Positions 12,591-40,257 of a DNA stretch of 55,922 nt are shown here, in pieces. The notes beneath the pieces were generated by a model. The model worked only from the letters and a program-made list of their open reading frames with translations, did no database searches and had not been told where the DNA came from. Positions within the stretch are counted from its first letter, which is position 1. The number at the start of each line of letters is the position of its first letter. Both the position numbers and the translations under genes were made by a program. The stretch lies in NCBI GenBank assembly GCA_044340075.1, contig JBIIUH010000001.1, forward strand, positions 1 through 55,922, in the 5' to 3' direction. Origin of the DNA: Ilumatobacteraceae bacterium (GTDB taxonomy: Bacteria > Actinomycetota > Acidimicrobiia > Acidimicrobiales > Ilumatobacteraceae).

Positions 12591-13312
12591 GACTCGTCCG
12601 CCTCCAGACACGGATGGAACTGCTGCAGATCCTGCGCAACTACGAGCAACTGCTGCTCGTCATGATCATTCCCCTGTTCGTGCTCGTCTTCTTCGGCAAC
12701 GTCGACGTGCTGCCGGGTTCGACGACTATTGCCCAACTCACGTCCTCGGTGCTCACGCTCGCCGTCGTCTCCTCGGCGATGGTGAGCCTCGGTATCTCGA
12801 CGGGTTTCGACCGGTCGTACAACGTACTGAAGCGGCTCGGTGCATCGCCGCTCGGTCGGCGTCGGCTCGTTGCAGCAAAGATCCTCGCGGTCATCGTCGT
12901 ACAGATCGTGCAGTGCGGTGTCCTGCTCGCCGTGGCGGCGCTCATCGGATGGCGGACGTCTGCGGGTGCGGCGCTGCTCACGCTCCTCCCGGCCGTCGCA
13001 CTCGGTTCACTCGCTTGTGGCGGACTCGGTCTCACCCTGGCGGGTCGCTTGCGTGCCGAGGTCAATCTCGCGGTGCAGAACGGTCTCTATCTCGTGCTCA
13101 TCGTCGCCGGTGGAGTCATCGTGCCCGCCGACGAACTTCCCGGGCCGCTCAGCCGGGTGGCCGAATTGCTCCCCACCGGCGCGCTCGCAACGGCGATCAC
13201 CGGTGCACTGAACGGCGGAGCCACGGCGCGTTCCTGGCTCGTACTCGGCATCTGGGCCGTCATCCTGCCGCTCGTTGCGGCACGATCATTCCGTTTCGAC
13301 GCCACGCCGTAG
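12587..13312 (+). CDS. ABC-2 type transporter permease
   Basis: 241-aa polytopic membrane protein. ATGA overlap with the ATPase gene. Confidence 0.8.
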   Translation: MRLVRLQTRMELLQILRNYEQLLLVMIIPLFVLVFFGNVDVLPGSTTIAQLTSSVLTLAVVSSAMVSLGISTGFDRSYNVLKRLGASPLGRRRLVAAKILAVIVVQIVQCGVLLAVAALIGWRTSAGAALLTLLPAVALGSLACGGLGLTLAGRLRAEVNLAVQNGLYLVLIVAGGVIVPADELPGPLSRVAELLPTGALATAITGALNGGATARSWLVLGIWAVILPLVAARSFRFDATP

Positions 13313-13323
13313 CGGCGGGACGA

Positions 13324-14241
13324 TCAACGACGCGGGACGTCGTCTTCCTTGATCGCCGGCGCCTTGTCGAAGGCGCGCGTGACGTCATCGAACGTGAGCG
13401 CCGAGTTCGCCCGACGGTACGTCTGCTGTCCGTGGAACTGGGTGGTGAAACGACGGAACCACAGGAACACGATGATGCTCCACAGGAAGACGGTGCCGCC
13501 CGTCTTCATGATGGCCCCGGCGATCTGTTGGTCGACGGTCGCCGACAAACCCCACACACGGACCGTCACGTCGTAGTGCCTGTACACCACGCCCTCGGCG
13601 AAGGTGAGCCATGCCGCAGGGATCGTCGGAATCACCGACATGAGGAAGAGGTACACCATCCGACCGACGTACCCGACTCGCAGTGACGGCTCCGGCGACA
13701 CGACGGGGATCCACATCAGCAACGACGACGTCACGACGAGCACGTGCAACGTGTAGTGCAGGGGTCCGTTGCTCGCGCTCTGGTTGACGAGTGCAGGGAT
13801 GTGGGTGACGAGAACGACGACGTTGTACAGGAACCCCGCGATGACGGGGTGGGCGAACCAGCGCACCATGCGACCGACGACCGGGGTGTCGAACAACGCA
13901 CGGAAGAGCCACGCGGGGGTCGCCAGCAGTGCGAGCGGCGGAAGGAAGTACGACAGCGCCATGTGCTGGAACATGTGCACCGAGTAGAGGTATTCCTCGG
14001 CGATGTCGTGGATCGGCCAGTCGGACGCGATCCACAACACGGCGATGGCCGCCGCGAACAACCAGTTCTGGCGCCGCGTGACGACGGGTTCACCGCGGCG
14101 CAGGTGCTCGGCGTGCGGACCGATGACGCGAATGGCATACACGCGTGCGCCGATGAGGAACGCCACGAGCAACCACACCTCTGCATGGGCCTGGAAGCGC
14201 CACGGATCGAGGAGCGGGTTGGCGGCCTCGGCGAGGACCAT
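13324..14241 (-). CDS. ctaG: Cytochrome c oxidase assembly factor CtaG (Bacillus caa3_CtaG type)
   Basis: 305-aa polytopic protein with a HMFQHM motif. It is the last gene of the cta operon, 10 nt after ctaF. Confidence 0.8.
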   Translation of the reverse strand: MVLAEAANPLLDPWRFQAHAEVWLLVAFLIGARVYAIRVIGPHAEHLRRGEPVVTRRQNWLFAAAIAVLWIASDWPIHDIAEEYLYSVHMFQHMALSYFLPPLALLATPAWLFRALFDTPVVGRMVRWFAHPVIAGFLYNVVVLVTHIPALVNQSASNGPLHYTLHVLVVTSSLLMWIPVVSPEPSLRVGYVGRMVYLFLMSVIPTIPAAWLTFAEGVVYRHYDVTVRVWGLSATVDQQIAGAIMKTGGTVFLWSIIVFLWFRRFTTQFHGQQTYRRANSALTFDDVTRAFDKAPAIKEDDVPRR

Positions 14242-14251
14242 GTTGCCGACC

Positions 14252-14578
14252 TCAGCGAATGAAGAAGTGGAAGGTGGCGAGGAAGGCCACGTAGACGCCG
14301 ATCGCCAGCACCAGTCCCGAATAGAACAGGAAGCTGAAGATCTTGTTGTCGAACTTCAGGTGCATGAAGTAGCTGACGACGATGACGAACTTCGCGACCA
14401 TCATGATGAGCAGTGACGGCAGGAAGAACGGACCGAAGTCGACGTAATACGTCGCCACCTCGAGCGCCGTGATGAGCGCGAGGATGATCGCGATGTTGAC
14501 GTAGCCGCGGGTGCTCATGCCGTGCTCGGCATGATCCCCGGCTTCTTCGTGTGCGTGGGTATGTGTGTCGGTGCTCAT
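14252..14578 (-). CDS. ctaF: Cytochrome c oxidase subunit IV (prokaryotic CoxIV/CtaF, Bacillus type)
   Basis: 108-aa, 3-TM protein (YVNIAIILALITALEV..., MVAKFVIVVSYFMHLK). It starts 2 nt after the ctaE stop. Confidence 0.75.
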   Translation of the reverse strand: MSTDTHTHAHEEAGDHAEHGMSTRGYVNIAIILALITALEVATYYVDFGPFFLPSLLIMMVAKFVIVVSYFMHLKFDNKIFSFLFYSGLVLAIGVYVAFLATFHFFIR

Positions 14579-14580
14579 GA

Positions 14581-15168
14581 TCAGACCGGGATGAGGTAGA
14601 CGAGGGTGAAGATGATGATCCAGACGACGTCGACGAAGTGCCAGTACAGACCCAGCATTTCGACGGTTTCCGACTTGCTGCCGGGAACCTTGCTGCGCTT
14701 GTTGATGGCAACGAGGGCGAGCAACATGATGATGCCGACCGTCACGTGGACACCGTGGAATCCGGTGAGCGTGTAGAAGCTCGATCCGAAGAGGCTGGTG
14801 GAGAAGCCGAGACCTTCGTTGTAGAAGGCCGTGAACTCGTACACCTGGCCACCGACGAACGTCGCGCCGAGCATGGCGGTGACGACGAGCCACAGGTTCG
14901 TGCCTCGGTCGTCCTTCTTCGCCGCCGCCGACACCGCGAACACCATGGTGAGCGAGCTCATGAGCAGGACGAAACTGCTCACCGAGGTGAACGGGATGTC
15001 GAAGATCTGCGACGGGGTCGGCCCCTCCGACACGCGACCGCGATACAGCAGGTACGTGGAGATGAGACCGCCGAACAGGAGACACTCCGAGCCGAGGAAC
15101 ATCCACATGCCCAACTTGACGTTGGACAAACCGGTGGAGGTCTGATGTGCGTGGGCCGTATCAGCCAT
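14581..15168 (-). CDS. ctaE: Cytochrome c oxidase subunit III
   Basis: Starts at MADTAH. Motifs FYTLTGFHGVHVTVG and LYWHFVDVVW. 8-nt overlap with ctaD (ATGGCTGA). Confidence 0.92.
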   Translation of the reverse strand: MADTAHAHQTSTGLSNVKLGMWMFLGSECLLFGGLISTYLLYRGRVSEGPTPSQIFDIPFTSVSSFVLLMSSLTMVFAVSAAAKKDDRGTNLWLVVTAMLGATFVGGQVYEFTAFYNEGLGFSTSLFGSSFYTLTGFHGVHVTVGIIMLLALVAINKRSKVPGSKSETVEMLGLYWHFVDVVWIIIFTLVYLIPV

Positions 15169-17158
15169 GGTGTGCTCCGTGGCCGTTGTGGCCCGCTTCG
15201 TAGTCGGACTCCTCGGCCACCGACGGCTCGAGCGACCAGCCGTACATCGCGTACAGCAGGATCGCACCACCGACGATCGTGACGGGGAACGAATAGATGA
15301 GGCCGAGTGCGATCGGAATCAGCGAGAACGCAAGGACGATCGGCCAGTACGACGGTGACGGCATGTGGATGTTCGTGTCCGGGTTCTTCTCGAGATCCTC
15401 GAGCACCTTCTCCGCCGTTGCAACCTGCTTCATCGAATGCGTCGACGTGTCTTCCTCGTACTTGCGGTGGAAGAACTCGTCGAGGTGCTCGACGTGCGGG
15501 ATCGCATCGAAGTTGTGCTCCTTCGGCGGGTTCGACGTCATCCACTCGAGGCTGCGTGCGTTCCACGGATCGAGCGGCGCGCGCTCCTTCTTGCGAGCGG
15601 TCACCCAGATGTTGACGATGAAGAGAAGGACGCCGAGGGCGAGAACGAACGAACCAACGGTGGCGACGAGATTCCAGAACGCGAGGTTGAAGAATCCCTC
15701 ACCGGCGCGCGCTTCGGTCCAGATGTACATGCGCCGCGGCTGGCCCTGCAGACCGAGGATGTGCATCGGTCCGAAGGTGAGGTTCATACCGATGATCGTC
15801 AGCCAGAAGTTCCACGAACCGAGTCGTTCGGAAAGCATCTTTCCGAACATCTTCGGCCACCAGTAGTACATGCCGGAGAACAGACCGAGGATCGCGCCGC
15901 CGAACAGCACGTAGTGGAAGTGGGCGACGATGTAGTAGGTGTCGGTCTGCTGGGTGTCCGACGGGGCGATCGAGTGGGTGACACCCGACAGACCACCGAC
16001 GGTGAACAGGAAGACGAGACCGACGGCGTACTTCATCGCCGTCGTGAAGACGAGCTTGCCGCCCCACATCGTGAGCGTCCAGTTGATGATCTTCACGCCG
16101 GTGGGGATCGCAATGGCCATCGTCGCGACGGAGAAGACCGCCACCGACACCGGACCGAGACCGGAGGCGAACATGTGGTGCGCCCACACACCCCATCCGA
16201 CGAAACCGATCGCGGCTCCGGAGAAGACGACGAACGGATAGCCGAACAGCGGCTTGCGACTGAACACGGGGAGGACTTCGGAAATGATGCCGAACGACGG
16301 CAACACGAGGATGTACACCTCGGGGTGACCGAAGATCCAGAACAAGTGCTGCCACAGCAACGGGTCCGCACCGGCTGCAACGTCGAAGAACTGTGCGCCG
16401 AACACGCGCTGGAACATGAGCAGGAACAGCGCAACGGTGATGACCGGCATCGCGAAGAGCAGCAGGAACTGCACAACCGTCACCATCCAGGTGAACACGG
16501 GGATCTTCATCAACGTCATGCCCGGCGCGCGCATGTTCAGCACCGTGACGATGAGGTTGATCGCGCCCGTGAGGGACGCGATACCCGTGATCTGCAGGCC
16601 GAGGGCCCAGAAGTCGACGCCGTGGCTCGGCGAGAAGACGGGACCCGAGTTCGGCGCGTACATGAACCAGCCACCGTCGGCGGCTCCGCCGAGGAACCAC
16701 GACAGGTTGACGACGATTCCACCGGCGAGCAGGCACCAGAAACCGAACGCGTTGATGCGCGGGAATGCGACGTCACGGGCACCGATCTGCAGCGGGATGA
16801 AGTAGTTGGCGAATGCCGACGCCATCGGCATGACGAAGAGGAACACCATCGTCGTGGCGTGCATGGTGAACATCTGGTTGTACAGGTCGGCGTTGAGCAC
16901 CTTGCCGTCCGGTGCCGCGAGCTGCAGACGGATGAGCAGCGCCTCGATACCGCCGACGATGAAGAAGAACATCGCAAGCGCGCCGTACATGATGCCGAGC
17001 TTCTTGTGGTCGACGGTGAAGACCCACGACTTCCAGCCCGTGGAGGCGACGGGGCGCTTCAGCGCGCCGAAGGTGCGCGACGGGGTGATCTCGGCGGCAC
17101 CGGGCAGGAGCGCGGGCGTCGTGATCGTTCCCGGAGCGGGGCGTTCGATGATGGCCAT
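15161..17158 (-). CDS. ctaD: Cytochrome c oxidase subunit I (A-type, 14-TM Bacillus-like form)
   Basis: All canonical ligand motifs are present: TMHATTM (heme a His), WIFGHPEVY (CuB His plus cross-linked Tyr), WAHHMF and VAHFHYV. It also has a two-helix C-terminal extension (IHMPSPSYWPIVLAF...). Confidence 0.96.
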   Translation of the reverse strand: MAIIERPAPGTITTPALLPGAAEITPSRTFGALKRPVASTGWKSWVFTVDHKKLGIMYGALAMFFFIVGGIEALLIRLQLAAPDGKVLNADLYNQMFTMHATTMVFLFVMPMASAFANYFIPLQIGARDVAFPRINAFGFWCLLAGGIVVNLSWFLGGAADGGWFMYAPNSGPVFSPSHGVDFWALGLQITGIASLTGAINLIVTVLNMRAPGMTLMKIPVFTWMVTVVQFLLLFAMPVITVALFLLMFQRVFGAQFFDVAAGADPLLWQHLFWIFGHPEVYILVLPSFGIISEVLPVFSRKPLFGYPFVVFSGAAIGFVGWGVWAHHMFASGLGPVSVAVFSVATMAIAIPTGVKIINWTLTMWGGKLVFTTAMKYAVGLVFLFTVGGLSGVTHSIAPSDTQQTDTYYIVAHFHYVLFGGAILGLFSGMYYWWPKMFGKMLSERLGSWNFWLTIIGMNLTFGPMHILGLQGQPRRMYIWTEARAGEGFFNLAFWNLVATVGSFVLALGVLLFIVNIWVTARKKERAPLDPWNARSLEWMTSNPPKEHNFDAIPHVEHLDEFFHRKYEEDTSTHSMKQVATAEKVLEDLEKNPDTNIHMPSPSYWPIVLAFSLIPIALGLIYSFPVTIVGGAILLYAMYGWSLEPSVAEESDYEAGHNGHGAHHG

Positions 17159-17174
17159 GGTTCCCTTTCGATTC

Positions 17175-18383
17175 CTACTTCAGGGTGAGCAGATATGCGA
17201 CGAGCTTGTCGATATCGGATTCGGAGAGACCGAGGTTCGGCATGCCGCGAACCTTGCCGTTCGTCGGACCGAGCTGATCGGGGTTCGCATACATAGGCTT
17301 CACTTCGGGAGCGTTGCGCAACCACGCCCGCAGGTCGTTGACGTTGAGGCACTCCTCACCGACGCCGGCGAGGTACTTCTCGCCGAATTCCGCGGGTGAG
17401 GCGTTCCATACGCCGGGACGACAAGCCGGCGTGAGCAGGTCGAACATCGCTCCGGCGAAAGTGTTGCGGGTCATCAACTTCGTGAGGTTGGGTGCGGCAC
17501 CCGACCACACGTTCTCATCCGGCGCCGCGATTGCCAGCGTTCCGTCGGCGCGCTTCAGACCGTCGACCTGATGGCAGCGCACGCACTGGTTGAGGAACAC
17601 GCCTTCGCCCTCTTTGGCAAGCGAGCCCTCGGCCGGCGACACGTACGGTGCCTGCTGGTTGGCCACCCACTTCGCGAAGTCTTCCTTGCTCAGTGCGATC
17701 GCTTCCATGCGCATGTTCGCATGCGACAGACCACAGAACTCTGTGCACTGACCGGCGTAGATACCCGGCTCATCGGCCTCGAGGCGCAGGGTGTGGATGC
17801 GACCCGGAACGGCGTCACGCTTGCCGTTCAGCGCAGGGATCCAGTACGAGTGGATGACGTCGCGACTCGTTTCGCGCAGGAGCACCTTGGTACCCGCCGG
17901 GATGACGAGTTGACCGCTCGTCACGATCGGCTGGGCGATGCCGAACTCGTTCTGCACGGGATAGTCGTACTCCCACCACCACTGTTGGCCGGTGACGTTG
18001 ATGATCATTTCCGTGTCGTCGGTCTTCGCGAGATCGAAGATGACACGCACGGTGAACACACCGATCACGGCCAGGATCAGTGCAGGGATGAGCGTCAGGG
18101 TGATTTCGACGACCGGGTTGCCGTGCGTCTGCTCGGGAATCGGCTGACCACGGTCCTTGTAGCGCCACAACACCCAGCCGAGTGCGACGACGACGATGAG
18201 ACCGACAATGCCCGCCACCGCGAACACCGGCTTCTGGAGATCATCGATCATCTGGGCATTCGGACCCTTCGGCGCCCACGTGTCCTGCGGGGCGTTCTGC
18301 GCACACGATGCAGTGACGACGACACCGGTCAACAACGCACCGATTCGGGTGACGGTACGACGCAGGGAAGCGAGCTTGTTCAC
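17175..18383 (-). CDS. ctaC: Cytochrome c oxidase subunit II with fused C-terminal cytochrome c domain (caa3 type)
   Basis: Lipobox-like LTGVVVTASC, two TM helices, CuA site HSYW...CTEFCGLSHANM, heme c site CVRCH and distal GMPNL. Confidence 0.93.
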   Translation of the reverse strand: MNKLASLRRTVTRIGALLTGVVVTASCAQNAPQDTWAPKGPNAQMIDDLQKPVFAVAGIVGLIVVVALGWVLWRYKDRGQPIPEQTHGNPVVEITLTLIPALILAVIGVFTVRVIFDLAKTDDTEMIINVTGQQWWWEYDYPVQNEFGIAQPIVTSGQLVIPAGTKVLLRETSRDVIHSYWIPALNGKRDAVPGRIHTLRLEADEPGIYAGQCTEFCGLSHANMRMEAIALSKEDFAKWVANQQAPYVSPAEGSLAKEGEGVFLNQCVRCHQVDGLKRADGTLAIAAPDENVWSGAAPNLTKLMTRNTFAGAMFDLLTPACRPGVWNASPAEFGEKYLAGVGEECLNVNDLRAWLRNAPEVKPMYANPDQLGPTNGKVRGMPNLGLSESDIDKLVAYLLTLK

Positions 18384-19483
18384 GGTACGAACACCTCAAT
18401 GGACTGGCCGGTGAGACCGGCGACGAACAGGGAATACGGACCTCGGTCGATCGACGCCTTCGCATACGTCAGGGTGAGCGACTGCTCCGCACCCTCGGGG
18501 ATGAGCTGCGTGCACAACTCCTCGGGCTTCTCCGTCGCATCGGCGGCGGCCTTGCCCGGCGAGGCCACGAGGCGGAACTCACCTTCGTCGTAGTTGCGGA
18601 AGATGACGTTCACCGGGTTGGAGCGCTGAATGGTGATCGCCTGTGTCGGCGACTGCACACCGAACTCGTAGGCGGTCAGCTTGCCGTCGCGAAGTTCGAC
18701 GGTGGCAACGACGTTCGAACGCAACGACAGCGTGCGCATCTCGAGCTTGTCGAAGTACTTCGAGCGCTCCGGACCGCATTCACGGTGCGAGTAATGGCCC
18801 TCCGCGGCGGCCTCGACGAGGTCGGCGCGCAATCCGACGCCGGCGCTCGCAATTCCGCCGGCGACGATGCCGAGCGTGGCCAGGGTGCACAGGCCGGTGA
18901 CGATCGAGCGCTTCAGACCGGGACGCACGGCGAACAACGTGCCACCGACGAGAACGATCGTGCCGAACACGAGGAACAGGACGGCACCGGTGCTCTTCGA
19001 CACGGCGAGCATGATGCGCGAGAACGAGAAGATGACGACGCCGACGCCGAGGGTGGCGAGCACCGGGAACTCGATCGGATTGGCGATCCGCTTGCGGGTC
19101 GCGGCGTTGTACGCGGGATCGTCGGACGCCGATTCGCTCCACGACTGCACGGCCCACTCGATGAGACCTGCGAGGACGACGACGATGCCGAAGACGAACA
19201 CCGCGGAGCTCGTGATGAGACCGAGCGCGAGCAACACGACACCGACGACGGTGACGAGCGGCCACATGCTCGCCCCGACGAGTGCGGCATCGGCCGGCTG
19301 GGCCTCGTCGTCACCGTCGCGCACGATGATCGCGACGGCCGACAGACCGCACACGGCGGCAAAGACGATGCTCAGCGCCACTCCGCCGATCGCCAGGCGC
19401 TCGACGAACAACAGGTACGCGATGAGGGTGACGGCGTTGAGCGCCGCGAGCCCGATGAGGAACTTGGAACCCGTGCGAATCAT
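18380..19483 (-). CDS. 7-TM membrane protein with a C-terminal cupredoxin/subunit II-like domain lacking CuA ligands; function unknown
   Basis: ATG 19483 (MIRTGSKF) lies 8 nt after the upstream stop, and the stop overlaps the ctaC GTG (GTGA). About seven hydrophobic helices are followed by a ~150-aa beta-rich domain that aligns by eye to the CtaC CuA domain. Confidence 0.75.
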   Translation of the reverse strand: MIRTGSKFLIGLAALNAVTLIAYLLFVERLAIGGVALSIVFAAVCGLSAVAIIVRDGDDEAQPADAALVGASMWPLVTVVGVVLLALGLITSSAVFVFGIVVVLAGLIEWAVQSWSESASDDPAYNAATRKRIANPIEFPVLATLGVGVVIFSFSRIMLAVSKSTGAVLFLVFGTIVLVGGTLFAVRPGLKRSIVTGLCTLATLGIVAGGIASAGVGLRADLVEAAAEGHYSHRECGPERSKYFDKLEMRTLSLRSNVVATVELRDGKLTAYEFGVQSPTQAITIQRSNPVNVIFRNYDEGEFRLVASPGKAAADATEKPEELCTQLIPEGAEQSLTLTYAKASIDRGPYSLFVAGLTGQSIEVFVP

Positions 19484-19491
19484 CGATCGAC

Positions 19492-20097
19492 CTACTTCTG
19501 TACGTACACCACGAACCACACGGCGAGGAACATTCCGCCGAGTGCGTACCAATAAAGAGCGTGTGCGGCGAGAACGTCGTGGTCACCCATGCGCCCGGCC
19601 CACACGCGGAACAGTGCGACGAGGGAGTACACGACACCCGACACGATGAGCGCGAGCATCGTTCCGGTGACGGCGTAGAACAGCGTCTCGTAGGCGTCGT
19701 TGCGCAGCTCGAGTCCCATCTGCAGGTAGAGCGCGATTTGTGCGTTGACGAGTGCGAGACCGATCGCGGCGGTGATCGACAGGGCGAGGATCGTGTGCGA
19801 CCTGTCGGCGCGGCGGGCCGAGTAGACGGCCCATTGCGCCATGATGCACACCGCGACGAAGGTGATCATCATCGTGTTCGACGCCACTTCCGGCACCGCA
19901 ACGTCGGCCTTCAGCCAATCCTTGATCATCTTTGCGCCGTCGCTCGACGCGCGCAGCGGTGCCTTCGCACGGAAGTCGAGCCACATCGCGAGCATGCTGC
20001 CGATGAGCGCGGTTGCACCCGCGGCGGCGAATGCGGTCGCGACGAACACCGAACTGCGACGGCGAACGGGACCGGCGGTGAGTGCGGGAACGGTCAT
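19492..20097 (-). CDS. Heme-copper oxidase subunit III-like protein (divergent paralog)
   Basis: 201 aa with 5 predicted TM helices. FYAVTGTMLALIVSG and LYWYALGGMFLAVWFVVYV align with the CtaE motifs. ATGA overlap with the upstream gene. Confidence 0.8.
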   Translation of the reverse strand: MTVPALTAGPVRRRSSVFVATAFAAAGATALIGSMLAMWLDFRAKAPLRASSDGAKMIKDWLKADVAVPEVASNTMMITFVAVCIMAQWAVYSARRADRSHTILALSITAAIGLALVNAQIALYLQMGLELRNDAYETLFYAVTGTMLALIVSGVVYSLVALFRVWAGRMGDHDVLAAHALYWYALGGMFLAVWFVVYVQK

Positions 20098-21608
20098 TGC
20101 GCCACCTCTGCCGTGTCGTAGGGATTCGTCGTCGTCTCGGTGCCGCGCGAACGCGCACCGACGATCACGGCAACGGCGCCGAGCACCGCGAGCACCATCG
20201 CGAGATGGCCGAGTGCGGACACGCCGTTGAGGATTCCGCGCAGACCTGCATCGTCATGCCCGGTCGCCGTGGCGGCGGGCTGGTTGAGGAAGCCGGCAAC
20301 GTAATGCGGCAGGGCGGCGAGAACCACGGCGACGAAACCGAGCAGCGACACGCCGAGAACGGCTCCGGTGGGCAGGACACGCCGCCAGATCGCCGTCGAC
20401 CAATACGCAACGGCGCCGAATGCTCCGAGAACGCTGCCGTAGACGACGTAGACGAGGGCTGCTTCCGTGAACACGGTGCCCTGCAGGTCGGTGGTATCGA
20501 TCATCTGCACGGCGGTGCCGACGAGTCCGGTGAGGATCATGCCGACGCCGAGGAAAGCGGGGACGAACGGTGCCACGAGGCGCGGTGAACCGGCCTTCAG
20601 CGCGAGCAACGCGAGCGCGATGACGATGAGCGGCGCGAGCAGCGGCAACAGATGGAACAGCGCAAAGGGAACGAACGATCCGAGCGTCTCGCCGGGGGTG
20701 TCGCCGACGGTGAACGGGTGACTGCGCTGCGTCACGGAAGCGACGACGGCAACGGCGCAGAGCCCGATCCCGACGAGGACTCCGCCGCGCAGCGGTTGGC
20801 GGGTGCGGGCGGCGACGGCACCGAGGTGACCGAGCACACCGAGCGCGGGAGCGGCAAAGAGGAGCGACTGCGGCTGGTCGAAGAGCCAGGCCAACCACGA
20901 AGCCATGAGTCCGGTGCCGCCGAAGGCAACGCGGGCATTGGCGAAATCAACCCACAAATAGATGACCGTGCCGAGGGCGACGGGCATCGTGAGCACGAGG
21001 CCGACGGTCGACACGAGCACGGCGAAGACGAACACCGACACGGAGTCGAGGGTCGCACCGTTGCGCCGCGTCATCACCGTGGCGGCCAACGAGACGGCCG
21101 TGCACAGGATGCCGACGATGGCGATACCGAGACCGAGCAAGTACAACTCGACGGCGTCGGCGGTACCGCCGCCGGGTCCGCCGTTGGCGATGATCGACGC
21201 AACGACGAGCGCGCCACCGGCCGCCCACATCCAGAACCCGAACGATGCGAGTCGTACGAACGAGACGGTGGCTGCCTTGAGCAGCGAGGGCACGACGAGC
21301 AGTGCGACGCCGAGGAACAGAGGTGCGAGGACACCGAGTACGAGGGCGTAGTGGTACAAGCCGAACAACTGCACGTGTGCACCGGTATCGACGAGTGCAG
21401 CTCCGGCGTCCATGCGCTCGGCGCCGAGCAACGCGCCGAGGACGGCGGCGAGCAACAGCCACACCCCGGTCAATCCGAGGTAGAGGCGGCCGAGGCGAGC
21501 GTGATCAGCAACGGTGAACCACGCCGCAAGGCGGGTGACGGCTGAGGGCTCGTCGGCGACGGGGCGAGACAAAGAAGATGCGTCGGCGACAGACATGATC
21601 ACCGGCAA
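20094..21608 (-). CDS. Heme-copper oxidase subunit I-like protein lacking CuB and heme a3 ligands (divergent paralog)
   Basis: 504-aa polytopic protein collinear with CtaD ([48 protein letters not shown]). The start is uncertain (TTG 21608, GTG 21602 or ATG 21596). Confidence 0.85.
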
Positions 21609-21663
21609 GGCTACTCAGAACCGCCCGATTGACCGAACCTCCGCAACCGTTCGGTGTGCCGAA

Positions 21664-22602
21664 CTAGCGCACGAGCACGTCGACGGTGATCGCCACCCCG
21701 ATGAGCGTCACGTAGGAGATGGAGTAGCTGAACACGCGCATCGCCGCCGCCGGCGTGGGTGCGTCACCCAGACGGTACGTGACGACGATGAAGAGCACAC
21801 CGAGCACGACGGCGGCAATCCCGTAAATGACACCCATGTCGGCAACGGGAATGAGCGCGAACGAGCACGCGCACACGACGAGGGTGTACGCACCCATCGT
21901 GCGCACCGTGCGGGCGAGGCTGACGACCACGGGGAGCATCGGCACCGACGCGGCGCGGTAGTCGTCGACGTGGCGAATCGCCAGCGCCCAGAAGTGCGGC
22001 GGGGTCCAGAAGAAGATGAAGAGAAAGAGGATGACCGGGGCCCAGTCGAGACGGCCGGTGACGGCTGCCCAGCCGACGAGAACGGGAACGGCACCCGCTG
22101 CCCCACCGATGACGATGTTCTGACGCGACGTGCGCTTCAACCACAGCGTGTAGATGCCGATGTAAAAGGCGGTCGCCGACAACGCCAGACATGCGGCGAG
22201 CAGGTTGGATGTCGTCCACAGCACGGCAAACGCGGCGACCTCGAGTGCGACGGCGAAGACGAACGCCGCGCGCGGACTCACCATGCCGGTGACGAGCGGT
22301 CGATGCCGCGTGCGCTCCATGAGCGCATCGATGTCGCGGTCGACGAACATGTTCAGCGCGTTGGCACCGCCAGCGGCAAGTGCACCGCCGACCACCGTCC
22401 ACACGACCAGCCACGTCGACGGCCACTCGCCTGCTGCAAGCACCATCGTCGGCACCGTCGTGATGAGGAGCAACTCGATGATCCGTGGCTTCGTCAGCGC
22501 CACGTATGCACCGATGCGCGAACGCGGAGCGCCCGTTCCCGTGTGGGTGAACGCGCGACGACCCAGCCGCGACGGAACCAACGGGCGGCGTCCGAGCATC
22601 AC
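21664..22602 (-). CDS. ctaB: Protoheme IX farnesyltransferase (heme O synthase)
   Basis: UbiA-family motifs YVALTKPRI and [20 protein letters not shown]. 9-TM profile. Confidence 0.93.
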
Positions 22603-22641
22603 GCCGAAAGGCTACGAGGGCCCCGACGGCACAATGGAGCC

Positions 22642-22959
22642 GTGGTCGCAGCGCGCACGTTCACCAATCGCACCGACACCCTGCCCGCCGACACGACGAC
22701 GACCGACACCACCGAGTCGCACGACTCACCGTGGGTCGTCATCGTGTGGAACGACCCGATCAACCTCATGTCCTACGTCACGTGGGTGCTGCAGAAACTG
22801 TTCGGCTATTCGTTGGAAAAAGCGACGGCACTGATGCTCGACGTCCACGAAAAAGGTCGTGCGGTCGTGTCCAACGGGTCGCGCGAGAAGGCGGAGTTTG
22901 ACGTCCACCGGTTGCACGAGCACGGCTTGTGGGCGACGATGCAAAAGGACGACGCGTGA
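22642..22959 (+). CDS. clpS: ATP-dependent Clp protease adaptor ClpS
   Basis: The C-terminal core [26 protein letters not shown]...HEKG.A is diagnostic. GTG 22642 is the nearest plausible in-frame start, so the start is uncertain. Confidence 0.88.
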
Positions 22960-23432
22960 TCGAACGCGTCGGCGACTCGTACCGCATCGTGCTCGACGAC
23001 ACGAGTCGCGCGGTGCTCACGACGGTGCTCGGCGAACTGCGCGACGAGATCACCACCGGCACCGGTGGTCACCTCACCCGACTCTTCCCCGTCGCGTACC
23101 ACGCCGATCCCGTCGCCGACGACGAGTTCCGGCGTTTGATGCACGACGACCTCGCCGCTTCACACCTCGCCGCTCTCGAGACGACCATCACCATGCTCGG
23201 ACGTCACGATGATCTTGGTGCGGAGGAGGTCGAGGCACTCATGCGCTCACTCAACGCAACGCGCCTCGTCCTCGGCACGATCCTCGACGTCACCGACGAC
23301 GATGCCGACGATGAAGAAGAGGACGACCGCGATGCCGACGGGATGGCAGATCACCGACGGCTGTACGCCTTCCTCGGCTGGGCGCTCGGCCACACGCTCG
23401 ACGTTCTCGGTAGCGACCCGACGGGACGCTGA
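22956..23432 (+). CDS. DUF2017-domain protein (conserved partner of actinobacterial clpS)
   Basis: GTG 22956 overlaps the clpS stop (GTGA). The acidic C-terminal tail and the position downstream of clpS are typical of DUF2017. Confidence 0.75.
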
Positions 23433-37977: not shown

Positions 37978-40257
37978 ATGGCTGGTGATCACGCGACTCC
38001 TTCTTCTACGGCAGCGACCGACCGTCGTCTGAAGCCGTACCACCTCTCGATCCTCATCGGATGCGGGATCGGAATCTTCACCCTCGTGTCGGGCATCGTC
38101 CCGACACTCACTGGATGGGAGAGTGACTCACCGATCCACCGCACCGTGTTCGGCGGCATCCCCGATCCGCTGAAGGTCGCCTTCTACACGGTCATCCCGA
38201 TGATGCTCATCTGGGGTTCGTTGCGCTTCGCCGACCGCGTGCGCAACTGGGAACGCGGCGCACCCGAGCGCCGCAGCACGAATGCACGCAACGTGAAGCG
38301 TCGCCTTGCCGACTTCCGTGCCGGCGTGTACATGAAGACGCTCTTGCGCGACAGTGCCGCGGGCCTCATGCACTCGATGATCTACTTCGGATTCCTCGTG
38401 CTGCTCGGCGTCACCACCGTGCTCGAGGTCGATCACCAGTTGCCGCCGAGCCTGAAGTTCCTGCACGGCGACGTGTACAAGGGTTACGCACTCGTCGGTG
38501 ACGTCGCCGGTGTCGTCTTCACGGCGGGAGTCGTGTGGGCGATCTTGCGTCGCTACGTCCAGCGTCCGTACCGCATCCGCATCAAGTCGAAGCCCGAGCA
38601 TGCGGCGATCCTCGGAGTTCTCCTCGCGATCGGCGTCAGCGGTTTCGGCGCCGAAATGTTCCGTATCGCCGCCGGCCAGGCAGCGGGGGAGAACCTCGAC
38701 TACGAACGGTGGAGCGTCATCGGATACCCGCTCGCCCAGTTCGTCAACGGCGCATCCGTGGCGAACCTCGAGTGGTGGCACCAGGCGTGGTGGGTGTTAC
38801 ACGTGCTCACGTTCATCGCCTTCCTCGCACTGCTGCCGATCACGATGCTGCGCCACGTGTTCACGTCACCGTTGAACATGTACCTGCGCGATCGCGAGCG
38901 TCCGAAGGGCGCGATGCGGGCAATGCCGAACCTCGCCGAGACGTCGCTCGAGACGTTCGGTGCAAACGTCGTCGAGGACTTCACGTGGAAGCAGCTGCTC
39001 GACCTCGACGCATGCACGATGTGCGGTCGGTGCACGAGCGTGTGCCCCGCCCACGCCACCGGCAAACCGCTCGATCCGCGCGAAATCGTCCTGAAGAGCG
39101 GTGAAGTGATGGCAGCCACCGCCGCACACGCCCCCGGTGGCCGCGTGTCACCGCCGATCGGCGTCGACTCGGAGATCACGGTGAACGCAAACTCGTTGTT
39201 CGAGCGCATCACCGCCGAAGAGGTGTGGTCGTGCACGACGTGCAAGGCGTGCGACGAGATCTGCCCGGTGAACATCGAGATCATGGACAAGATCCTCGAC
39301 ATGCGCCGCTACCTGTCGCTCATGGAGAGCAACTTCCCCGCCGAACTCGGCAACGCGTACCGCGCGATGGAGAACCAGTACAACCCGTGGGGAATGAACC
39401 AGGGCGACCGCGCCGCATGGGCGAAGGACCTCGACGTCACGGTCGTCGATCCGGGTCAGCAACTGCAGCACGAGTACCTGTACTGGGTGGGATGTGCCGG
39501 AAGCTTCGACGACAAGAACAAGAAGGTCACGCAGTCGATGGCCGCGTTGTTGAAGCGGGCGGGCATCGACGTCGCAATCCTCGGGCCGAGCGAGATGTGC
39601 ACCGGTGACAGCGCACGCCGCAGCGGCAACGAGTACCTCTTCCAGATGCTCGCCACACCGAACGTCGAGATGCTCAACGGCATGGGCGTGAAGAAGATCA
39701 TCACTCAGTGCCCGCACTGCTTCAACACGCTGAAGAACGAATACCCGCAACTCGGTGGCAACTACGAAGTCGTCCATCACACCCAGTTGCTCGAGGAACT
39801 CGTGTCGTCGGGTCGCCTCGATCTCTCGGGGGCCACGCTGAACGAGCGCATCACCTACCACGACTCGTGTTACCTGGGTCGCCACAACGACGTGTACCTC
39901 GCACCGCGCAAGGTCGTCGGTTCGATCAAGGGAATCGAGATCGTCGAGATGCCGCGCAACGGCACGACGGGAATGTGCTGCGGCGCCGGTGGCGCCCGCA
40001 TGTGGATGGAAGAGAACGTCGGAGCAAAGGTGAACGACGAGCGGGCGAAGGAGGCGATCGCCACCGGTGCGACGCGCGTCGCCACCGCCTGTCCGTTCTG
40101 TTACATCATGCTCGACGACGGAGTGAAGGGTGCCGGCAAGGACGAGAGCGAGGTGAAGGTGGCGGACATCGCCATCCACCTCCTCGACGCGATCGAGGAA
40201 GGCGAGCGCAGCCGTTCGCTGCGCAACGCTCCGCTGTCGACGTCAGCCGGCGAGTGA
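37978..40257 (+). CDS. Membrane-bound Fe-S oxidoreductase (HdrD/GlpC-like; NarI-like N-terminal TM domain, 2x[4Fe-4S], two CCG domains)
   Basis: CTMCGRCTSVCP and CTTCKACDEICP ferredoxin motifs. Cys-rich CCG-type segments (WVGCAG, TQCPHCFNTL, YHDSCY, MCCGAGG, TACPFCY). Same architecture as the mycobacterial Rv0338c type. Confidence 0.85.
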   Translation: MAGDHATPSSTAATDRRLKPYHLSILIGCGIGIFTLVSGIVPTLTGWESDSPIHRTVFGGIPDPLKVAFYTVIPMMLIWGSLRFADRVRNWERGAPERRSTNARNVKRRLADFRAGVYMKTLLRDSAAGLMHSMIYFGFLVLLGVTTVLEVDHQLPPSLKFLHGDVYKGYALVGDVAGVVFTAGVVWAILRRYVQRPYRIRIKSKPEHAAILGVLLAIGVSGFGAEMFRIAAGQAAGENLDYERWSVIGYPLAQFVNGASVANLEWWHQAWWVLHVLTFIAFLALLPITMLRHVFTSPLNMYLRDRERPKGAMRAMPNLAETSLETFGANVVEDFTWKQLLDLDACTMCGRCTSVCPAHATGKPLDPREIVLKSGEVMAATAAHAPGGRVSPPIGVDSEITVNANSLFERITAEEVWSCTTCKACDEICPVNIEIMDKILDMRRYLSLMESNFPAELGNAYRAMENQYNPWGMNQGDRAAWAKDLDVTVVDPGQQLQHEYLYWVGCAGSFDDKNKKVTQSMAALLKRAGIDVAILGPSEMCTGDSARRSGNEYLFQMLATPNVEMLNGMGVKKIITQCPHCFNTLKNEYPQLGGNYEVVHHTQLLEELVSSGRLDLSGATLNERITYHDSCYLGRHNDVYLAPRKVVGSIKGIEIVEMPRNGTTGMCCGAGGARMWMEENVGAKVNDERAKEAIATGATRVATACPFCYIMLDDGVKGAGKDESEVKVADIAIHLLDAIEEGERSRSLRNAPLSTSAGE

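Follow-up and report, generated by a model that had tools for sequence, protein, structure and literature searches.

The locus described here raises the question of what a second gene for a heme-copper oxidase (HCO) subunit I, apparently deprived of its cofactor ligands, is doing in the operon of a working caa3-type oxidase. It lies in a stretch of 55,922 nucleotides from an Ilumatobacteraceae bacterium (contig JBIIUH010000001.1), called the window below, and all positions are numbered over this whole 55.9-kb window. The gene, named psCOX1 here, occupies positions 20094-21608 of the minus strand, and the functional subunit I gene, ctaD, is found 3 kb downstream of it. An earlier note, made from the letters alone, had proposed a pseudo-enzyme with a structural, assembly or regulatory role, not a second oxidase. 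This work indicated that the psCOX1 product belongs to a family which has kept the subunit I fold, shows ligand loss throughout, and is maintained by purifying selection together with two neighbouring genes, in line with that proposal.

In the mechanical list of open reading frames (ORFs), psCOX1 comprises 504 codons from a TTG. The true start is likely the ATG at position 21596, giving a predicted product of 500 amino acids, because the closest database relatives (P0001-P0003) are 500 amino acids long and begin with MSV. The product matched the Pfam COX1 profile (PF00115) over profile positions 1-413 of 436, with 100.9 bits for a cut-off of 34.8 (E 1e-28), which bears out the profile search that had been suggested as a check. 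It is collinear with the CtaD of the window (BLASTP E 2e-21, 24% identity over about 500 residues), as claimed earlier, and the three collinear motifs then quoted are indeed present. A phmmer search of PDB sequences returned subunit I chains only, with 6koc_A on top (E 2.6e-18). The AlphaFold2 model, built on 53 family members, displayed 12 long transmembrane helices, with a mean predicted local distance difference test score (pLDDT) of 89.3 and a predicted template modelling score (pTM) of 0.90. Foldseek placed A-type subunit I chains at the top for this model, with template modelling scores of 0.75-0.82, E values of about 1e-16 and 19-21% identity, the structural matches at about 0.8 including 9gy6_F, 7qhm_D, 3fye_C and 2yev_A. 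The intact scaffold of 12 or more helices announced by the earlier note was thus recovered in the predicted structure.

With A-type CtaD/CoxA proteins (TIGR02891, PF00115), psCOX1 indeed shares the 12-helix fold, full-length collinearity and the operon, as well as non-catalytic motifs (DHxxxG, F-x-R...FGFW, R-x-x-G, the GG loop, HP-Pro and Q-P), and the longer members of its family retain the A-type C-terminal segment DPW..TLEW..SPxP..NF. By contrast, it lacks the His ligands (bar a lone H297), the Tyr cross-link, the gating Glu, the residues of the D and K channels, the Asp of the Mg site and the Arg pair of the heme propionates, as well as the C-terminal two-helix extension of the CtaD of this lineage. 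It also fails the curated models of the functional enzyme, with 117.7 bits for a cut-off of 670.75 against the CtaD/CoxA equivalog TIGR02891 and 80.9 for 880 against NF050116. Homology and fold place psCOX1 in the subunit I superfamily, the functional definition outside it.

To read the cofactor sites, 86 orthologs were aligned with MAFFT to 62 co-resident true CtaDs. Thirteen functional columns (H100, D129, H278, E280, Y282, H327, H328, K356, D406, H413, H415, R475 and R476 in CtaD) were intact in 62/62 CtaDs, and are occupied in psCOX1 by Y85, T114, Q245, Q247, L249, S296, H297, V329, G377, A384, V386, A445 and A446, respectively. The replacements read in the earlier note at helix VI were confirmed, the CuB ligand His278 becoming Q245, the gating Glu280 becoming Q247 and the cross-linked Tyr282 becoming L249. 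Both His of helix X are lost, as it had stated, with A384 at heme a3 His413 and V386 at heme a His415, and the D-channel Asp129 is indeed a Thr (T114). Beyond that list, the K-channel Lys356 is replaced by V329, the Mg-site Asp406 by G377 and the heme-propionate Arg475 and Arg476 by A445 and A446. Its retained helix II ligand, His86, did not hold: this residue lies one position off the heme a ligand column (H100 in CtaD), which is Y85 in psCOX1 and His in only 14/86 orthologs. The remaining CuB ligands, His327 and His328, correspond to S296 and H297, the latter being the only widely retained His (74/86 orthologs). The alignment of helix VII is unstable, H297 falling on the third CuB His in this alignment and one to two columns off in another, so that the claim is limited to at most one His, which is what had been read from QRSHPF aligned to WAHHMF. 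No conserved set of His was placed at the heme a, heme a3 and CuB positions. On these alignments, psCOX1 is predicted to be unable to ligate heme a, heme a3, CuB or Mg, and to be devoid of the D and K proton pathways.

The classification of the superfamily by Sousa et al. (2011; PMC3084760) took as its inclusion criterion six invariant His, of which two ligate the low-spin heme, one the high-spin heme and three CuB/FeB, and the standard classifier explicitly dropped sequences without them (PMC3084760). These six columns read Y85, Q245, S296, H297, A384 and V386 in psCOX1. The other characters of the A-family, namely the His-Tyr cross-link, the Asp and Glu of the D-channel and the Lys of the K-channel, are missing as well, and so are those of nitric oxide reductases (NORs), i.e., two heme ligand sets and three His plus Glu for FeB, at the same columns. 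Metal-ligating candidates conserved in both branches of the family came down to the canonical DH motif and a Glu in helix I. Divergent HCO families, suggested or demonstrated to reduce NO, were described recently (eNOR, bNOR, sNOR, gNOR and nNOR; Murali et al., 2024; PMC11214002). They lack the cross-linked Tyr only, one CuB His being further replaced by Asp in gNOR, and they keep both hemes and the metal site (PMC11214002). The psCOX1 family shares with them the superfamily, an altered active site and its discovery by genome or metagenome mining; it differs in lacking the whole binuclear centre and, in the Ilumatobacteraceae branch, the heme ligands too. In the literature searched, the coverage of which was incomplete, no subunit I family without ligands was found described.

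To determine the extent of the family, its profile was run against 1.84 billion cluster representatives, and at least 444 clusters at 50% identity matched it at E<=1e-30. All matches given a family or class name by their source were Acidimicrobiia. Among 106 full-length top representatives, all six His were found in none and no His at all in 65. In a neighbour-joining tree, the psCOX1 family formed one clade on a long branch from CtaD, and its earliest branches retained two His, that of helix II and the heme a ligand of helix X. A second search was seeded with these early-branching sequences, and 120 full-length matches were examined; where an order or family was named, it was Acidimicrobiales or Acidimicrobiaceae, and the sources included soil metagenomes. 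In this deeper-branching set, the helix II His was present in 103/120 and the helix X heme a His in 83/120, with the heme a3 His in 3/120 and a CuB His in 0/120, and its members probably bind one low-spin heme, to judge from these ligands. The term redox-dead, used in the earlier note, thus holds for the Ilumatobacteraceae branch and not for the family as a whole, in which the deeper-branching relatives retain low-spin heme ligands. This history is most simply read as one ancient duplication in Acidimicrobiia. The binuclear centre may have been lost first and the low-spin heme site later, in the branch leading to Ilumatobacteraceae, in which the window falls with 94% identity to a metagenome-assembled genome (MAG) of that family; this order is provisional, because the tree is distance-based and without support values. 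Among the records examined, several MAGs bear wrong-looking public labels ('uncultured Bifidobacterium sp.', 'Bifidobacterium breve' and one 'Acidimicrobium ferrooxidans DSM 10331'), these being L006, L008, L042, L051, L055, L056, L069, L071, L080 and L081.

Maintenance of the gene was evaluated in a one-genome-per-species scan, in which 201 genomes contained a relative; the best 80 loci, together with five from an exact-protein look-up, made up the 85 loci studied. The psCOX1 ORF was uninterrupted in 85/85 of them, at 40-94% identity. Nei-Gojobori estimates of omega (dN/dS), determined between the window and two relatives at 93-94% protein identity (L006 and L007), were 0.069-0.122 for psCOX1 at a synonymous divergence (dS) of 0.30-0.39, compared with 0.024-0.058 for ctaD, 0.03-0.09 for the neighbouring gene psCOX3 and 0.065-0.135 for the next one, p367. 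The gene evolves about three times faster than ctaD; it is faster-evolving than the enzyme yet clearly constrained, under purifying selection, with no sign of relaxed selection or pseudogenisation in these comparisons. It is retained in MAGs of freshwater Ilumatobacteraceae (acIV). Relative conservation was decreased in helices VI and VII and in loops VII-VIII and IX-X, i.e., in the catalytic core, and increased in helix III, the III-IV loop and helices IV, V, XI and XII, which is the pattern expected if protein-protein surfaces, and not cofactor pockets, are now selected. This part of the window also stands out by its composition: the AT skew of the plus strand is 0.35 at positions 20001-22000 and at most 0.16 in the rest of the window, T far exceeding A on the coding (minus) strand. 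This is probably the mark of a very hydrophobic membrane protein, poor in Lys, Asn and Glu, in a 65% GC genome.

The surroundings of psCOX1 then had to be considered. It belongs to one close-packed cluster spanning positions 13324-22602, with all genes on the minus strand, as follows.

ctaB, 21664-22602, minus strand: heme O synthase (protoheme IX farnesyltransferase), Pfam UbiA E 1e-65; opens the cluster.
psCOX1, 20094-21608, minus strand: predicted cofactor-less heme-copper oxidase subunit I paralog, Pfam COX1 E 1e-28.
psCOX3, 19492-20097, minus strand: subunit III paralog of 201 amino acids with five transmembrane helices, Pfam COX3 E 2.1e-6.
p367, 18380-19483, minus strand: CtaF-like protein of 367 amino acids with several transmembrane helices and a C-terminal beta-rich domain.
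ctaC, 17175-18383, minus strand: subunit II with a fused cytochrome c (caa3 type), Pfam COX2_TM, COX2 and Cytochrom_C.
ctaD, 15161-17158, minus strand: functional subunit I of 665 amino acids with a C-terminal two-helix extension, Pfam COX1 E 1e-153.
ctaE, 14581-15168, minus strand: functional subunit III with five transmembrane helices, its start taken as the ATG at 15168, Pfam COX3 E 7.7e-22.
Subunit IV of the COX4_pro type, 14252-14578, minus strand: 108 amino acids; its orthologs in loci L001, L003 and L005 carry PF03626.
ctaG, 13324-14241, minus strand: caa3-type oxidase assembly factor, Pfam Caa3_CtaG E 5.4e-40; closes the cluster.

The order ctaB-psCOX1-psCOX3-p367-ctaC-ctaD-ctaE-(IV)-ctaG was identical in 85/85 Ilumatobacteraceae-type loci and was found again in three deeper-branching loci, interrupted in both sets by contig ends only. 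psCOX3 directly followed psCOX1 in 83/85 loci, i.e., in all those whose contig reaches that far, and ctaB preceded psCOX1 in every locus with a contig long enough. psCOX1 is thus the first gene of a conserved module of three genes, encoding a subunit I paralog (I'), a subunit III paralog with five helices (III') and a CtaF-like protein, and this module always lies between ctaB and ctaCDEF-ctaG. The paralogy to subunit I put forward in the earlier note is upheld, with the correction that psCOX1 is not a lone gene and is accompanied by a subunit III paralog. The stop of psCOX1 overlaps the start of psCOX3 by 4 nt, as does the stop of p367 with the start of ctaC, and the gap between psCOX3 and p367 is 8 nt; the overlapping junctions suggest translational coupling to the structural genes. 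A scan for promoters and terminators over positions 13000-23200 gave no signal above shuffled expectation.

The deeper-branching loci share this gene order and have a divergent ctaA upstream. This gene for heme A synthase (ctaA/COX15) was observed upstream of ctaB in 3/3 of them (L086, 7099-7989; L087, 6888-7820; L088, 1-291), while tblastn found no ctaA in the 55.9-kb window nor in the 85 Ilumatobacteraceae-type loci, a search that covered these loci only. The absence of ctaA beside the operon coincides with the loss of the low-spin heme ligands by psCOX1. Between the window and L007, dS varied in blocks, from about 0.24-0.30 in ctaB, psCOX1 and psCOX3 to about 0.42-0.55 in p367, ctaC, ctaD and ctaE, which suggests a recombination breakpoint within the cluster.

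The two partners of psCOX1 were characterized in turn. psCOX3 exceeded the cut-off of the Pfam COX3 profile (PF00510; 28.2 bits for 23.8) and aligned to the CtaE profile across five transmembrane helices (hhalign probability 96.9%, E 1.7e-10, 157 columns), in line with a subunit III origin. Against NF050119, it reached E 1.2e-10 with a score of 42, below the cut-off of 190. p367 is predicted to contain about seven transmembrane helices, followed by the C-terminal beta-rich domain. The window copy had no match in Pfam, while PF12270 (CtaF, the actinobacterial subunit IV) matched 2/20 p367 members at E 2.7e-5. Its residues 69-113 are homologous to the hairpin at the C-terminus of CtaD (residues 600-644; hhalign probability 85.5%, E 5.7e-6) and carry a motif, S-x-W-P ... 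E-W, also found at the C-terminus of the CtaD of this lineage; this hairpin is weakly similar to the first two transmembrane helices of Rhodobacter sphaeroides subunit III (1m56_C, E 0.2). psCOX3 is thus akin to subunit III, and p367 may be akin to CtaF; unlike those subunits, both remain far below curated family cut-offs, and p367 possesses extra transmembrane helices and, in Ilumatobacteraceae, the beta-rich domain. In CtaD itself, the extension at about residues 600-644 forms two helices with a motif S-x-W-P ... G-W, like the first two helices of a seven-helix subunit III and like PF12270 CtaF, and the separate CtaE has five helices only.

The beta-rich domain of p367 (residues about 230-367, i.e., some 130 residues) contains two invariant Cys, C236 and C324, and no relatives of this domain were detected. 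It is probably extracytoplasmic, because it follows about seven transmembrane helices and is likely to contain a disulfide. This domain is present in Ilumatobacteraceae-type loci and absent from the deeper-branching orthologs, of 267-279 amino acids, which indicates a lineage-specific addition. The AlphaFold2 model of p367 was poor (pLDDT 50), too weak for a fold search. A degenerate subunit II, with the beta-rich domain as the remnant of a CuA cupredoxin, was considered for p367 and rejected: hhalign against the CtaC profile gave a probability of 1.4% only, Pfam gave nothing, and the domain is missing in the deeper-branching relatives. No heme c motif was found in p367.

From a mechanistic point of view, we favour, tentatively and at a little short of an even chance, a sub-complex that attaches to the caa3 oxidase as a non-catalytic accessory or scaffold. 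psCOX1 would be a catalytically dead A-family subunit I paralog keeping the 12-helix fold, and would form with psCOX3 and p367 a cofactor-free shadow sub-complex, I'-III'-IV'. Its genes would share a transcript with those of the real caa3 oxidase, and the module would dock onto that enzyme in the membrane, the candidate gains being stability, oligomerisation, docking into supercomplexes or the organisation of lipids around the enzyme. We infer the mutual assembly of the three products, their physical membership in the oxidase complex and the effect of their association. A broader proposal, possible though on balance doubtful, is that the caa3 oxidase of Acidimicrobiia is a hetero-assembly in which a live oxidase is joined by a cofactor-free ghost oxidase, I'-III'-IV', derived from duplicated subunits, the fold of which would now be purely structural, reached stepwise by loss of the binuclear centre and later of the low-spin heme.

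Several lines of reasoning lead to the docked sub-complex. The derived branch lacks the low-spin heme ligands and is constrained nevertheless, which implies that the selected function needs no redox cofactor. The subunit I and III paralogs and a protein with the CtaD hairpin were duplicated and kept together, which fits a mimic of the complex better than a single chaperone. Finally, the retention of the trio, its fixed place among the structural genes and its overlapping junctions argue for a mimic of the enzyme core, with a function tied to the real oxidase. Other observations weigh on the opposite side. True assembly genes, ctaB and ctaG, belong to the same operon, and co-transcription alone cannot distinguish a subunit from an assembly factor. 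The median identity to the window copy over 44 genome pairs was 45% for psCOX1 and 79% for CtaD, a divergence which fits an assembly factor too. The bis-His low-spin heme site of the deeper-branching members, along with the adjacency of ctaA, hints moreover at an ancestral link with heme handling.

These last points lead to the main alternative, rather unlikely in our opinion, in which the module is an assembly platform, a transient scaffold used during the building of the oxidase and outside the finished enzyme, e.g., holding CtaB (and CtaA) with nascent CtaD, or buffering heme O or A before insertion. It lies directly after ctaB and, in the deeper-branching lineages, near the divergent ctaA, and the pair of low-spin heme His found in most of those members could hold heme transiently. 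psCOX1 evolves fast relative to the core subunits, as such a factor might. In the analysis of evolutionary-rate covariation, residual signals linked psCOX1 with ctaB, the highest residual distance covariation of psCOX1 (r 0.66), and p367 with both ctaC and ctaD; as these genes lie next to one another, the signal is confounded by physical linkage and by the recombination visible in blockwise dS. Against such a platform, the Ilumatobacteraceae branch, without any heme ligand, is still under purifying selection, hence heme handling is not the conserved function, and three paralogous subunits coupled to structural genes would be an unusual layout for a chaperone. An analogy may nevertheless be found in NifEN, the scaffold paralog of the nitrogenase NifDK, which retains cofactor-binding ligands. 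As in that system, a paralog encoded beside the catalytic subunits would serve as an assembly platform; unlike NifEN, psCOX1 of the Ilumatobacteraceae type has kept no cofactor ligands. For the docked accessory sub-complex, a parallel is given by two structural subunits of cytochrome bc1, its core 1 and core 2 proteins, which are related to the mitochondrial processing peptidase but inactive. There too, selection would have kept an enzyme paralog in a respiratory complex in a non-catalytic role, with the difference that psCOX1 derives from the catalytic subunit of the very complex it accompanies, and that its membership is deduced.

An independent membrane function is improbable. The emptied bundle of 12 helices would then act as an ion or proton conduit, as a transporter or as a binder of hydrophobic ligands (quinone, lipid), through polar residues particular to the lineage where the active site used to be. 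Polar residues are indeed conserved at the former binuclear centre in the Ilumatobacteraceae branch (Q245 in 65/86, Q247 in 64/86, H297 in 74/86, together with Q294 and E382), and two motifs without canonical counterpart, GxER at the end of helix I and GGPxGG in loop III-IV, are found throughout the family. Those polar residues are, however, not conserved in the deeper-branching group, so that no single family-wide site exists; the canonical residues of the D and K pathways are lost, and the strict embedding in the oxidase operon points to a role tied to the oxidase. A cryptic enzyme, catalysing some reaction with a redox metal or heme bound by non-canonical ligands, is more improbable still. 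It would rely on H297 and E382, conserved near the old active site in the Ilumatobacteraceae branch, and on the single low-spin heme probably bound by the deeper-branching members, whereas five of the six ligand columns are Ala, Val, Ser, Tyr or Gln, the Arg pair of the propionates is Ala-Ala, the Asp of the Mg site is Gly, and the module offers no partner with a redox centre, p367 having neither CuA similarity nor a heme c motif. Lastly, a recent tandem duplicate of ctaD/ctaE heading for loss, or an annotation artefact, deserves practically no credit and is refuted, even though psCOX1 diverges faster than CtaD, by ORFs intact in all loci down to 40% identity, omega of 0.07-0.12 (0.02-0.06 for CtaD), at least 444 clusters at 50% identity with E<=1e-30, a class-wide distribution with conserved synteny, and a single clade on a long branch apart from CtaD.

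The psCOX1 family is thus a lineage of pseudo-enzymes, widespread, ancient, maintained by selection and open to experiment, in a superfamily that has been studied very thoroughly. A large selected family has given up the chemistry and kept the fold, across a whole class and always alongside a working oxidase. It has probably gone unnoticed so far because the standard classifier drops sequences without the six His. Should the module belong to the enzyme, it would provide a natural pseudo-subunit I, showing the non-catalytic share of the oxidase scaffold in stability, oligomerisation and the organisation of lipids or supercomplexes. The family also implies an undescribed composition for the respiratory complex of the abundant freshwater acIV Actinobacteria. 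In source annotations, the genes of this family are labelled 'cbb3-type cytochrome c oxidase subunit I' or 'heme/copper-type cytochrome/quinol oxidase subunit 1', and automated labels of the former kind imply that counts of terminal oxidases in Acidimicrobiia genomes are inflated.

Outside the cluster, the sole other respiratory-looking gene noticed in the window is an ORF of 759 amino acids on the plus strand (37978-40257), in which a NarI-type (nitrate-reductase-gamma-like) membrane domain is combined with 4Fe-4S dicluster motifs and two cysteine-rich CCG domains; it is an HdrD/DsrK-like membrane-bound oxidoreductase fusion.

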